Below are positions 32,428 through 40,950 of a stretch of DNA of 64,000 nucleotides, one piece after another. Source of the DNA: Escherichia phage vB_EcoM_SA20RB; sequence record OL960581; one strand, given 5' to 3'. Under the pieces are notes generated by a model. The model did no database searches, had not been told where the DNA came from, and saw nothing but the letters and a program-made list of their open reading frames with translations. How positions within the stretch are numbered: position 1 is the first letter of the stretch; each line of letters begins with the position of its first letter. Position numbers and translations under genes: made by a program.

Positions 32428-32614
32428 TATCTAAAATGTTGAAGTTAAAAGATACAGCCCAGTCAGTGCAGACCGTAACCTTTTTAATACAATTATCTTC
32501 AACCTCTAGCGGTTCAAACCAATATTCAATAATTTCTTTATGCCCAATATCATCTTTTACTTCGCATTCAAAATGCTGACTCATCATAACATTTTTAAAT
32601 TCATCAAAAGTCAT
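32351..32614 (-). CDS. hypothetical protein (87 aa)
   Basis: ATG start abutting gene 47 stop. Confidence 0.45.
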   Translation of the reverse strand: MTFDEFKNVMMSQHFECEVKDDIGHKEIIEYWFEPLEVEDNCIKKVTVCTDWAVSFNFNILDNDTPKSLQDMAVSCIKDAYCEVFDI

Positions 32615-33630
32615 TGTGTTGCCTCTACATATAACTGATTTGCATATTGAATAAGTGCTTCGCGATCAGAATCAGTGATGTCTGGAATTGCATTAATGTA
32701 TTCTTCCATCAACGTCTGAAGAGATTGAACTTCAACTTCTTCACTATCATCTGACTCGACAGAGTTATCAATCTTTGACACAACTCGTAATGAATGCACA
32801 ACTTTTTCTAGTTCAGATTCGAACTTCGTCAGATTTTTGTCTACTTCAGTTACTATAACACGCACTGACAGATTTGTAAAATCTTTATAGTCAATTTTTC
32901 CCTTAAATGGATATTGAATTCGACGATGCCAAGTAGTGTTGTTTGGAATAAATTCCATTCGTTCTGTTTCTGTATCAAACATCCAGAACCCACGAGGGTC
33001 ATTCTCGTCACCCGCAGTTAGTGTCCATGGTGTCCCAATATATCTGACGTTAGCAGCCTCAGAGATAGTATGGAAGTGACCAGACCACACTTCTTTGTAA
33101 GTCTTAAGGAAATCAGGTTCAAGACCGTGAGATTTCATTCCTTTATAAAAATAAAATCCATTCAGTTCCCAGTGACCAACACAAAAAGAAGCAGATGAAG
33201 TTTTGATGTGTTCAAGAATTTCACCAGTGTTTTCTTCACACATCCAAGGAATTAAATCAATCAAACATCCGTCAAAATCTACTGTAGTAGGCTTATCATA
33301 TACTTTAACATTAGGATATTTAGCCAAAAGCTCAGTAGAAGCATTTGGATGCATTACATTTTTATAGTGGAGATCGTGATTTCCTACAATAGTATGTAAT
33401 GTGATTCCAGCGGCATCAAGCATTTGAACTATTTCACGGGCAAACTCCATAGTTTTATGCGTGATCGCTTTTCGTACATCAAAAATATCACCGTATTGAA
33501 TCCATACAGTAATTCCATTTTTCTTAGAATATTCTATCGCTTGCTTAATTCCATCAATTTGAATACCGCGAATCCATTCATCATCAGCTTTAACGCCTAA
33601 ATGCCAATCACCCAAGTTTAGTATTTTCAT
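32611..33630 (-). CDS. 47: recombination nuclease gp47 (Mre11/SbcD-like phosphoesterase, 339 aa)
   Basis: phosphoesterase motifs LGDWHLG and GNHD; 339 aa. Confidence 0.85.
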   Translation of the reverse strand: MKILNLGDWHLGVKADDEWIRGIQIDGIKQAIEYSKKNGITVWIQYGDIFDVRKAITHKTMEFAREIVQMLDAAGITLHTIVGNHDLHYKNVMHPNASTELLAKYPNVKVYDKPTTVDFDGCLIDLIPWMCEENTGEILEHIKTSSASFCVGHWELNGFYFYKGMKSHGLEPDFLKTYKEVWSGHFHTISEAANVRYIGTPWTLTAGDENDPRGFWMFDTETERMEFIPNNTTWHRRIQYPFKGKIDYKDFTNLSVRVIVTEVDKNLTKFESELEKVVHSLRVVSKIDNSVESDDSEEVEVQSLQTLMEEYINAIPDITDSDREALIQYANQLYVEATQ

Positions 33631-34231
33631 GGTGTCTTTTCCATCCTAATTTAGCTGCTTTTGAAACTAGTTCTTTAATTTTTCCTTTTGTCCATTCAGG
33701 ACCAGGAGGTTCATGACATAACATTTGCTTAACTCCGTTATTATACCATTTTTTACCTTTATTATGTGATGAAGCTTTAAATTTATTTGACCTTCCTTTT
33801 ACATAACCTTCTGGAATATACGGTAAAAAGGCAGATTTTCCTGTTAATGGGTCATGTGAATGTATGTTTCCTTTACAATTATGAGAACCATATAATGGAT
33901 GATTTTGTCCTTTAATATCTCTTCCAAATGAACCTTTTGGAGCAGCATATGACATATTAAAGAATAATGGATTTTTAACCGCATCATGCAAACGTTGATA
34001 ATATAGCTCGCATTTAATAGCTTCTTCGCGTGTATCAAATTCATCTAAAATGCATGAATCAAATAAATGTGGGTTATTTGAAAGTTCTTCATTATAAATT
34101 TTCTTATACTTTTTAGATAAAACTGATCCATGATATCCGGCTAAATGCCTGTCTAAAGATGTAGATCCAATATAAAAAGGAGGAAGTTTATCTCCACTAT
34201 ATATTGTTAAATAAGTTATATATTTTTTCAT
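33608..34231 (-). CDS. GIY-YIG homing endonuclease-like protein (seg-like, 207 aa)
   Basis: YITYLTIYSGDKLPPFYIGSTS (GIY-YIG), conserved Arg/Glu downstream, NUMOD3-like GKKWYNNG; overlaps gene 47 start by 23 nt. Confidence 0.6.
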   Translation of the reverse strand: MKKYITYLTIYSGDKLPPFYIGSTSLDRHLAGYHGSVLSKKYKKIYNEELSNNPHLFDSCILDEFDTREEAIKCELYYQRLHDAVKNPLFFNMSYAAPKGSFGRDIKGQNHPLYGSHNCKGNIHSHDPLTGKSAFLPYIPEGYVKGRSNKFKASSHNKGKKWYNNGVKQMLCHEPPGPEWTKGKIKELVSKAAKLGWKRHHENTKLG

Positions 34232-34392
34232 ATATCAAGAACCGTCATTGAAATGCAAAATAAAATTATTGAAATAAATCCATCTGGAGTGCTAAAGAAC
34301 CCAATCCAACACGCTCTAGTGAATAGATAAAATGCGAGAAAAAGTATCACATATCCAAGAAATATCATTATATCAAACTCCGTATAAAGCTA

Positions 34393-34410
34393 AAGGGCCG
34401 AAGCCCTTTA
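34393..34410 (-). other. UUCG-tetraloop stem-loop at a-gt 3' end
   Basis: aaagggc-cgaa-gcccttt, near-identical to 29081-29098. Confidence 0.5.
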
Positions 34411-35610
34411 TTTTGTAATAATGTCAAACTGTTCTTTAAAGCAGAAGCTTGAATCTTGATGCTGATACAAAAATTCATAAGCTTTTTCGCGTTCACGGTC
34501 ATAAAGAGCTCGGTCAGATGACAGTTCTTTAATACGTTCAAATGTTGATTCCATGTCATTTTCATCAAACCAAACGATACCGCTATCATGAGAAATTAAC
34601 GGAGTATTATCAACACGGAATTTTAAATTTTCGCCAGTAGATTTCCAAAATACTGGAATTGTTCCACATGCACCAAGCTCGAGATGAGTATATTCTAAAG
34701 AACGTTGTAGATATTTTTTGTCCAACTTACTCAGCTGATAACCAAATCCGGATTTACTCATGCGCTCAAGCATTTCGCTATTTACATAACGGTCAAGAAT
34801 TTGCGTTGGCAAATTAGGAGCAATTTTAATTTGGTCTACTTGATGAAGACGATAATACTCGTATGGAATTCCTTTTTCTTTAATAGGAATGAACGCAGGA
34901 GAACGTTCCAGACCTTCCATAATAGTACTTAGCCCAGCAGGTTTAAGATGTTTTTCGTGAAAATCAAACATCTGATAAAAACCTTTCCATGTAGTCGTAC
35001 GACCAATCCAACGGTTGACATTCATGTTAATTTCAGAAACATCTTTCCAGTAGGTTGATCGAACCTTCGCAATATCCATAGGAGGCTGAAAGTTGTATAC
35101 AGTCGGTGCTTCTTCAATATCATCAAACAGAGAAACTGTTTCTGGATACCATTCTTTCATCAAAACTTTATTAAAATCACCATTATCAGAATGACTAAAA
35201 ATAACATCAGCTCGACGAACAGTTTCTTCTAATCCCAAATTTCGGCGCAAAGAAAGAGAAGAATGGTCATGTTGATAAACTACAACACGAACTGAAGGTT
35301 TAATGTTATCAATAATTTTTTTATAGTTATTAATAGTGTCTTCTTCGACTGAAGTAGCAGGAACTGAATTGATAATTAGAATATCACAATCATTTACCAG
35401 CTTAAGTGTTTTATCGTATTCTTTTGCCAATAAAACCGGAATTGAAAATGATTTATAATCATGCGCGCAATTACGAGTAAATGATTTATCTTTAGCATAA
35501 ACCAAAGTTACTTCATGACCATTTTTAATAAACCAATCACGCTGCTCGAGAGAAAATTTAGTTACGCCGCAACCTTCAAGACCTCGAGCCATAAAAATAC
35601 ATACTTTCAT
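34408..35610 (-). CDS. a-gt: alpha-glucosyltransferase (400 aa)
   Basis: 400 aa as T4 a-gt; position between 47 and 55. Confidence 0.75.
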   Translation of the reverse strand: MKVCIFMARGLEGCGVTKFSLEQRDWFIKNGHEVTLVYAKDKSFTRNCAHDYKSFSIPVLLAKEYDKTLKLVNDCDILIINSVPATSVEEDTINNYKKIIDNIKPSVRVVVYQHDHSSLSLRRNLGLEETVRRADVIFSHSDNGDFNKVLMKEWYPETVSLFDDIEEAPTVYNFQPPMDIAKVRSTYWKDVSEINMNVNRWIGRTTTWKGFYQMFDFHEKHLKPAGLSTIMEGLERSPAFIPIKEKGIPYEYYRLHQVDQIKIAPNLPTQILDRYVNSEMLERMSKSGFGYQLSKLDKKYLQRSLEYTHLELGACGTIPVFWKSTGENLKFRVDNTPLISHDSGIVWFDENDMESTFERIKELSSDRALYDREREKAYEFLYQHQDSSFCFKEQFDIITK

Positions 35611-35660
35611 TTAATATCCTCATTGTTTTGGTTTATTTTACCAAAAATTTATAAAGCAAT

Positions 35661-37104: not shown

Positions 37105-37182
37105 TTTCACCTCTTAGCTCAATTCATAGATCTATTATATCATAATATTTGAAGATCTATCTTAAAGCATAGAGGATATCAG

Positions 37183-37452
37183 TTATCTAAGTAAACAGTA
37201 TGCTTGGAACACTTTCTCCATCATCTTTTTAAATTCATGAATATCTATGTAATGACTAGTTAAATCAGCATGATATAAAAAGTCTAAAAACTTTTCATGT
37301 GTGCTAGCATATTCACTTTCATTTAATTCAGAAACATGGCTTTCCCAATATCCAACACCAGTCTTATTTGGGAAAAATGAAATTTTCATGTATTGGTCAA
37401 CATAGAAAATGCCATAATTTTCAATAGTAATAGAAATATTAATAAATTTCAT
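37183..37452 (-). CDS. hypothetical protein (89 aa)
   Basis: ATG start. Confidence 0.45.
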   Translation of the reverse strand: MKFINISITIENYGIFYVDQYMKISFFPNKTGVGYWESHVSELNESEYASTHEKFLDFLYHADLTSHYIDIHEFKKMMEKVFQAYCLLR

Positions 37453-40121: not shown

Positions 40122-40950
40122 TTATATATTTCCAATTATAGCCTTCAACACTTTTACGTTCGCCATTTAAACATTTTAAAATATTTCCTTTGCTAGAAAT
40201 ATTAAAATATTTTGCTGCGTCTGGTATATAATTAAATGTTTTTAAAAGAACACCATCTTTATATGCGCCAAATAAATTAAGAGTATATTTTTCTCGAAGA
40301 CGCTGATGTTTCCTTTTCATAACCTCAGGATTTGCATACGCCAACCTCAATGAATTTCTATGTTTTTCTTTTACTTCAGGTTTTTGCATTGCTAACTTAG
40401 TTAGCCTGGAAATTTTATTTCTAACTTCGTCAGTTTTCATTGCATTTGACAAATTTAATAAAGTTTTATTTCTAACTTCAGGTTTTTGCATTGCTAACTT
40501 AGTTAGTTCTCTATGTCTTTTTCTAAAATCGTCATCCTTCCATATATTTTTCGATAATTTTGACATAGAGCGGTGAAATAATTCCTTTTCACTGGAATAC
40601 AATTTAAAAATTTCATCCAATTCATCCGCATTAAATCTATCGGTATTCGAGTTTATCATTCTATGAAAGGCATAACACATTTTACTATTGCTTGTTTTAG
40701 CTAAATAGTAATGAGCTAACGCATGGTCATAATATGACAAATTAACAATATTCCATTTATCTGTTTTATATTCAGGAAATATAGATTTGGGAAGCACGTG
40801 ATGTGCTTCCGTTTTTCCTTTTATTTTAGGATTATTATAATTTTTTGTTATCAAATCAACATATGACAATAGTAAATCATTATTTTCTTCAAATATTAAA
40901 GCTAATTTATCATTCACAAAATCGCAAGGATAAAATCTATCGTAATTCAT
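40111..40950 (-). CDS. HNH homing endonuclease-like protein (mob-type, 279 aa)
   Basis: HNH motif AHHVLPKS..YYDHALAHYY; repeated KLAMQKPEV modules; ATGA overlap with nrdD stop. Confidence 0.6.
   Translation of the reverse strand: MNYDRFYPCDFVNDKLALIFEENNDLLLSYVDLITKNYNNPKIKGKTEAHHVLPKSIFPEYKTDKWNIVNLSYYDHALAHYYLAKTSNSKMCYAFHRMINSNTDRFNADELDEIFKLYSSEKELFHRSMSKLSKNIWKDDDFRKRHRELTKLAMQKPEVRNKTLLNLSNAMKTDEVRNKISRLTKLAMQKPEVKEKHRNSLRLAYANPEVMKRKHQRLREKYTLNLFGAYKDGVLLKTFNYIPDAAKYFNISSKGNILKCLNGERKSVEGYNWKYINEL

Follow-up and report, generated by a model that had tools for sequence, protein, structure and literature searches.

The homing endonuclease SegA of phage T4, encoded between beta-gt and uvsX, has uvsX, its adjacent gene, as its listed target, and the T4 HNH gene mobA occupies a site beside gene 39; the table of T4 mobile elements in the same review has no endonuclease gene at gene 47 (Edgell 2010; PMC2988022). 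A stretch of 64,000 nucleotides (nt) from Escherichia phage vB_EcoM_SA20RB (sequence record OL960581), referred to here as the window and covering the left-hand portion of a T4-like (Tequatrovirus) genome, contains an open reading frame (ORF) of 207 codons immediately upstream of gene 47. This ORF is very likely a free-standing homing endonuclease gene of the Seg type. It is probably also functional, cutting gene 47 of phages that do not carry it, with silent changes in the gene 47 of carriers protecting them from cleavage.

The genes around the ORF lie on the minus strand in the order 46, 46.1, 46.2, 47, the 207-amino-acid ORF, 47.1 and a-gt (Table 1). The ORF ends within gene 47, sharing its final 23 nt with the start of that gene (ATG at 33630), and its own ATG overlaps the stop codon of gene 47.1 as ATGA. 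An earlier note on this DNA, made without database searches, had given the coordinates, the length and the 23-nt overlap correctly and had placed the gene between 47 and a-gt, which is not directly the case, the immediate neighbors being 47.1 and 47. In T4 (NC_000866), as that note had stated, there is no seg gene at this position: 47.1 abuts 47 through the same ATGA overlap with nothing between them. Pairwise alignment of the window with T4 revealed a clean 601-bp insert in nearly identical flanks, the exact insertion point being ambiguous within 7 bp because the repeat ATGAAAA is present at both ends of the insert. The endonuclease ATG is preceded by the sequence found before gene 47 in T4, and since the ATGA overlap with 47.1 now lies at the endonuclease gene, the inserted gene took over the translation start context that belongs to gene 47 in T4. 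No strong Shine-Dalgarno sequence was seen by eye upstream of the endonuclease ATG, in agreement with the weak one reported earlier. The G+C content at third codon positions (GC3) is 0.135, compared with 0.23-0.27 for genes 46, 47 and a-gt, which fits a separate origin or weak expression. No second copy of the nuclease domain was found within the 64-kb window.

The distribution of the insert was surveyed with 70-nt junction probes against 50,697 phage records (GenBank phage set), counting matches with at least 80% probe coverage. Of these records, 69 have the filled junction and about 496 have the empty one (420 of them identical to T4), with T4, T2 and T6 all in the empty group. Isolates with similar names can differ in state, as do G4507 (filled) and G4500 (empty), fPS-90 versus fPS-2 and fPS-65, and AndreasVesalius versus teqdroes. 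IMG/VR contributed only 28 gene 47 loci, six of them close to T4 and all six empty, so that the population counts rest on the GenBank junction probes. In KNP1 and KNP5 the insert looks shortened, but only because of assembly gaps filled with N. The element is a presence/absence polymorphism at a precise site among close relatives, far from universal in T4-like phages and strain-variable as had been proposed from the window alone.

A family profile links the protein to characterized T4 Seg enzymes, which bears out its earlier description as seg-like. A total of 173 homologues were found, and the residue conservation counts and the AlphaFold model rest on 46 homologues. In profile comparisons with hhalign, which covered SegA, SegB, SegF and SegG, the best match among the Seg proteins was SegA (97.5% probability, E of 5.5e-12, 181 columns), followed by SegG (E of 9e-8) and SegB (E of 9e-6); similarity of SegF to the family was not detectable by this comparison. 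Among the PHROG families, the protein matches phrog_10820, labeled HNH, with an E of 2e-93 and phrog_314, labeled "homing endonuclease," with an E of 3e-18. By predicted fold and profile, the N-terminus belongs to the GIY-YIG superfamily. The predicted local distance difference test score (pLDDT) of the model exceeds 90 over the first ~95 residues, and the modeled order of strand-strand-helix-helix-strand-helix is that of the GIY-YIG core, a three-stranded sheet with flanking helices, so that the fold that the earlier note had looked to structure prediction to confirm or deny is indeed predicted. Every Foldseek match among viral models was a GIY-YIG, Seg-like or homing endonuclease protein, and the best solved-structure match for the N-terminal ~100 residues was the catalytic domain of I-TevI; a PDB search by sequence returned only chance matches to ribosomal proteins (E of 0.3-2.7). 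Y7, Y20, I21 and G22 are each found in 45 of the 46 homologues, and Y33, S39, E75 and N92 are found in all 46. The first motif is I-T-Y (ending at Y7) instead of G-I-Y, and E75 falls on E75 of I-TevI in the alignment; N92 stands for the downstream Asn of the superfamily (N90 in I-TevI).

The C-terminal half is modeled as two beta-hairpins, each followed by P-E-(G)-Y/W-x-K-G-R/K, with a helix after them. The repetition of the two hairpin motifs is not significant at the level of sequence (score of 19 versus a shuffle mean of 19.3). Residues 103-207 matched zero Pfam families even at an E of ≤10, in a search in which the NUMOD3 of SegA scored 28.7 bits, and no solved fold matched the C-terminal half. 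NUMOD3 (PF07460) is accordingly not supported for this region, nor is the NUMOD3-like motif (GKKWYNNG) that had been proposed there; paralogues with a different C-terminus do carry NUMOD3. The pLDDT falls below 50 for residues 196-207, the tail that overlaps gene 47, and this tail varies among the orthologues.

The endonuclease ORF is under strong purifying selection. Among three alleles (those of the window, Killian and AndreasVesalius), the ratio of nonsynonymous to synonymous polymorphism (pN/pS) is 0.063-0.068, with at most 15% synonymous and only 1% nonsynonymous difference, and nearly all of the ~67 close copies are recovered as a single read-through match of 207 amino acids. This level of allelic divergence argues against a very recent arrival; together with diverged orthologues at the same site in other genera, it makes the "recent insertion" of the earlier note too strong a description. 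Full-length relatives with 50-71% identity occupy the position directly upstream of gene 47 in several further T4-like groups, including Mosigvirus phages QL01 and AV118, phage vB_EcoM_005, Klebsiella phage SmallBear_ER8 and Aeromonas Biquartavirus L9-6, and one lies 121 nt upstream of gene 47 in Serratia Winklervirus LC53. Apart from that of LC53, every one of these orthologues abuts or overlaps the gene 47 start, and many of their C-termini end in E-N plus a few residues, which is the ATGAAAAT of gene 47 in the overlapping frame. Two Moon-like phages have a different sequence upstream of gene 47, in which no ORF resembling an endonuclease was seen by eye and nothing matched the family; the genes upstream are simply different ones in these phages.

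The start of gene 47 in the window differs from that of T4 by four silent substitutions in consecutive codons: codons 3-6 read ATT TTA AAT TTA in T4 and ATA CTA AAC TTG in the window. Otherwise, the window is identical to T4 over the last ~140 nt upstream of the insert and over the 35 nt of gene 47 that follow the cluster. A probe joining the T4-type start to the end of the insert matched perfectly only ERS-1 among the filled records, and the next best full-length matches had exactly four mismatches, so the other 68 of the 69 filled records are taken to carry the four changes. At least 420 empty records match the T4 sequence exactly and so do not have the variant start. The combination of an empty site and the variant start was found in about nine records, comprising UGKSEcP1, UGKSEcP2 (one probe mismatch), SHFML-26 (two accessions), PBM-1, Ec_YwIITB1, EPIMAM01, BCPEco_001 and BCPSen_003, with an intermediate in RB14. 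A deletion between the two ATGAAAA copies would yield exactly this sequence, so these alleles may have arisen by precise loss, but they could equally well stem from an ancestral resistant allele. The cluster adjoins the codons encoding G-D-W-H-L-G, which in Mre11/SbcD-type nucleases is the Asp-x-His phosphoesterase motif at the N-terminus, and GDWHLG or GDLH is kept in all of the gene 47 homologues examined. Homing enzymes typically recognize conserved sequence of such a kind. In the overlapping endonuclease frame, the variant bases give HENTKLG and the T4 bases would give HENFKFR, with the stop codon unchanged; as the tail is also poorly modeled and variable, a constraint from the overlap is an unlikely cause of the substitutions.

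A second instance of the pattern, weaker given the higher background divergence, is found in Mosigvirus. Codons 3-6 of gene 47 in the filled phage QL01 are ATT CTT AAT ACG, and those of its nearest empty relatives (~91% identical overall) are ATA TTA AAC followed by ACA or ACT in three genomes (L021, L022 and L030) and ATA CTA AAC ACA in a fourth (L023). As a separate observation at the same site, three VR26-like phages (L014, L015 and L017) have a gp47 that is ~72-73% identical to that of the window, and the first 29 nt of their gene 47 (ATGAAAATTTTAAATTTAGGTGATTGGCA) are identical to T4. Such identity is unusually conserved for this divergence and may reflect constraint or gene conversion at the site.

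In the mechanism proposed here, the C-terminal domain would, during mixed infection, bind the 5' end of gene 47 in genomes without the endonuclease gene, and the GIY-YIG domain would make a double-strand break nearby. Recombination-dependent repair with the carrier genome as template would then bring in the endonuclease gene together with flanking markers, and the outcome would be biased inheritance in the form of localized marker exclusion. The four silent changes at gene 47 codons 3-6 would shield the carrier, and we lean, by a narrow margin, toward a target that includes these codons. The linked substitution cluster is compatible with endonuclease-dependent over-transmission and is not proof of it.

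A number of observations weigh against a functional Seg-type homing gene directed at the start of gene 47, some concerning the protein and others the site. The Pfam GIY-YIG model (PF01541) matches residues 4-84 at an E of 9e-4 and 19.9 bits, below its cut-off of 22.6 bits, but the validated T4 SegG has zero Pfam matches, and the sub-threshold score is therefore not disqualifying. The canonical Arg position (R28 here; R27 in I-TevI) is variable in the family, with Lys in 27, Arg in 12, Asn in 5 and Gln and Glu in 1 each of the 46 homologues, so that Lys or Arg is found in 39; the aligned stretch of SegA has no basic residue. The superfamily assignment and the conserved Glu of the earlier note thus stand, with Glu75 invariant, and its "canonical" N-terminus and conserved Arg were overstated, given the xTY motif, the Pfam score and the variable Arg position. 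The identity as an HNH endonuclease that phrog_10820 and many GenBank/RefSeq records assign has next to no probability, as zero HNH families were found in Pfam at an E of ≤1 and both fold and profile match GIY-YIG. An inactive relic decaying after fixation in the lineage would account for ESh16 and ERS-1, which match in several pieces, for the existence of 194-amino-acid forms and for the empty alleles with the variant site, as expected late in a homing cycle. It is nevertheless very unlikely in view of the low pN/pS at such synonymous divergence, the intact length of nearly all close copies, the intact catalytic Glu and Asn, and the absence of true short inserts in KNP1 and KNP5. A domesticated, nonhoming GIY-YIG nuclease kept for phage benefit, whether for exclusion of competitors, for recombination or amplification in the way reported for SegB, or for regulation of gene 47, would fit the strong purifying selection, the old association with gene 47 in several genera and the takeover of the gene 47 translation start context. 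Also in its favor, a 2026 paper describes SegB as aiding escape from host immunity via amplification of anti-defense loci (PMC13096335). The patchiness within a species-level group and the precise empty site are the pattern expected of a selfish element, however, and ~88% of the related records are without the gene, so that domestication appears improbable.

The remaining objections concern where the enzyme would cut. A literature search found no cleavage or homing data and no study of this gene. Characterized Seg enzymes often cut hundreds of base pairs from the insertion site, and the true site may lie elsewhere; SegF and SegG reportedly cut some hundreds of base pairs from theirs. The cluster is only 8-18 nt from the insertion, and linkage or donor-derived sequence would give the same association without immunity. 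ERS-1 (PP337211.1) is the only record with the insertion and a T4-type gene 47 start; its endonuclease ORF is frameshifted, the record is marked "unverified," and there are indels also in neighboring genes, so it may be a sequencing artifact or a mixed assembly and is not treated as decisive. A rival explanation is a real homing endonuclease with its site deeper in gene 47 or in 47.1/a-gt, the silent changes being co-converted donor sequence or a product of linkage. Consistent with this possibility, both of the filled alleles compared share a gene 47 haplotype relative to T4 to about nt 930, and the empty Mosigvirus genome L023 naturally starts ATGAAAATACTAAAC, so the variant could be donor-derived. 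Against it, the four changes fall in four consecutive codons with nearby flanks otherwise identical to T4, these codons also distinguish QL01 from the empty phages closest to it, and the orthologues, LC53 excepted, abut or overlap the gene 47 start. A site elsewhere is accordingly judged unlikely, and cleavage at the start of gene 47, with protection by the silent changes, is the explanation retained.

Table 1. Positions in the window of the endonuclease gene, its parts and the adjoining features
Feature	Position	Strand	Basis
Very likely free-standing Seg-like, GIY-YIG class homing endonuclease gene, 207 amino acids, ATG start	33608..34231	-	ORF, PHROG matches, 173 homologues, pN/pS
N-terminal GIY-YIG catalytic domain (predicted), ~residues 1-100	33932..34231	-	Y7, Y20-I21-G22, R28, E75, N92
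C-terminal half, residues 101-207, presumed DNA-binding region, unclassified	33608..33931	-	
601-bp insertion relative to T4	33631..34231	-	Pairwise alignment to NC_000866; GC3
ATGAAAA direct repeat (7 bp), upstream copy, endonuclease gene start	34225..34231	-	Read from sequence
ATGAAAA direct repeat (7 bp), downstream copy, gene 47 start	33624..33630	-	Read from sequence
Four silent substitutions, gene 47 codons 3-6; candidate self-immunity changes	33613..33622	-	T4 alignment
Gene 47 codons 7-12, G-D-W-H-L-G; possibly part of the recognition site	33595..33612	-	
Gene 47, SbcD/Mre11-like recombination nuclease subunit, presumed target	32611..33630	-	ORF, T4 comparison
Gene 47.1, 46 amino acids; protein 100% identical to T4 gp47.1	34228..34368	-	
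Tentative T4 middle-promoter-like element, TTTAGCTTTA, 12 nt, TATAAT; also in T4	34367..34394	-	By eye versus published MotA-box consensus

The gene would be transcribed together with a-gt, 47.1 and 47 by read-through from upstream early or middle promoters, and its translation may be coupled to that of 47.1 via the ATGA overlap. No late promoter TATAAATA was found nearby, and sigma-70-like matches are no commoner than expected by chance. Just after the a-gt stop codon there is a perfect GGGC-UUCG-GCCC hairpin (window 34391-34410), conserved in T4, which is a terminator-like or RNA-stability element.

The region beyond gene 47.1 also differs from T4 in its mobile genes. The window does not have mobB, the HNH homing endonuclease gene that takes up ~0.8 kb between a-gt and a-gt.2 in T4; its a-gt/a-gt.2 junction (35598-35626) has 28 bp compared with ~865 bp in T4. 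As the 207-amino-acid gene is in turn absent from T4, the difference is reciprocal, each phage having an endonuclease gene not found in the other, one on either side of a-gt. Identity to T4 is only ~90% in the segment with 47.1 and a-gt (window 34225-35598), compared with ~98% over the stretch that runs from a-gt.2 to gene 55. Hardly any differences fall in gene 47.1 or the final ~250 nt of a-gt, which places the divergence in the upstream part of a-gt, toward the mobB site. An ORF at 40126-40812 on the minus strand is 27% identical to T4 MobB (tblastn E of 2e-11) and is probably a free-standing HNH-type endonuclease gene, and ~260 bp between genes 55 and 55.1 (37178-37437) are without a counterpart in the T4 segment compared.

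The gene is an uncharacterized addition to a well-known kind of endonuclease. The identical protein is already in public databases, for example, from Escherichia phage vB_EcoM_SA20RB, under names that include hypothetical protein, HNH endonuclease, GIY-YIG domain-containing protein as well as, in some genome records, putative homing endonuclease; the label "HNH endonuclease" that many records give is wrong. With this gene, gene 47 would join those essential T-even genes that are accompanied by a free-standing endonuclease gene. Markers next to an endonuclease gene of this kind are inherited with a bias, which matters for recombination in phage cocktails and for mosaicism around a-gt, 47 and 46. 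A natural test system is at hand, as carriers are available (e.g., the BASEL phage AndreasVesalius), T4, T2 and T6 provide empty sites of the T4 type, and about nine isolates are empty with the variant start. The T4 protein gp47 possibly contributes to the repair of homing breaks (PMC2988022), and, if gene 47 is the target, gp47 could be supplied in trans by the carrier genome for break repair. The unclassified C-terminal domain could interest engineers of GIY-YIG nucleases.

Among the characterized enzymes compared, SegA is the best profile match to the window protein. Both have ~210-220 amino acids and share a YxG-S/T...GY-x-GS stretch, and the gene for each is followed directly by a recombination gene in the same orientation. 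Pairwise BLASTP between the two reaches only an E of 0.09, with 28% identity over 76 amino acids, and the NUMOD3 repeats of SegA and its helical module at the C-terminus are both missing from the window protein; the locus and target of SegA also differ from those presumed for the window gene. SegG (T4, between 59 and 32) shares with the window protein the motif around the catalytic Glu and NPxxFN and likewise escapes the Pfam GIY-YIG model, and SegB (T4 tRNA cluster) ends in IPEGWFKGR, a motif that is also in the C-terminal half of the window protein, but the loci, targets and C-terminal regions of both differ. I-TevI (PDB 1ln0), the td intron endonuclease, carries a zinc finger along with a helix-turn-helix DNA-binding domain; it is encoded within an intron, whereas the window gene is a stand-alone ORF between conserved genes, outside any intron or intein, and the sequence match between the two is not significant (hhalign E of 0.28).

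A sister lineage is represented by two paralogues, gp009 of Yersinia phage TG1 (L043, 1498-2181) and gp108 of Escherichia phage Bp7 (L044, 1504-2184), whose nuclease domains are ~45-66% identical to that of the window protein. They carry NUMOD3 repeats at the C-terminus, which the window protein does not, and lie upstream of the topoisomerase large-subunit gene rather than gene 47, overlapping the start of the T4 gene 39/60 homologue by 8 nt. Such a link of C-terminal domain to locus is expected of modular homing endonucleases. It is conceivable, though doubtful, that the window protein represents an undescribed Seg lineage in which a new kind of C-terminal DNA-binding module tracked the active-site motif of gene 47 across genera, with a swap to NUMOD3 having retargeted the nuclease to gene 39. 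The paralogues of TG1 and Bp7 and the window gene alike overlap the start of the essential gene downstream.

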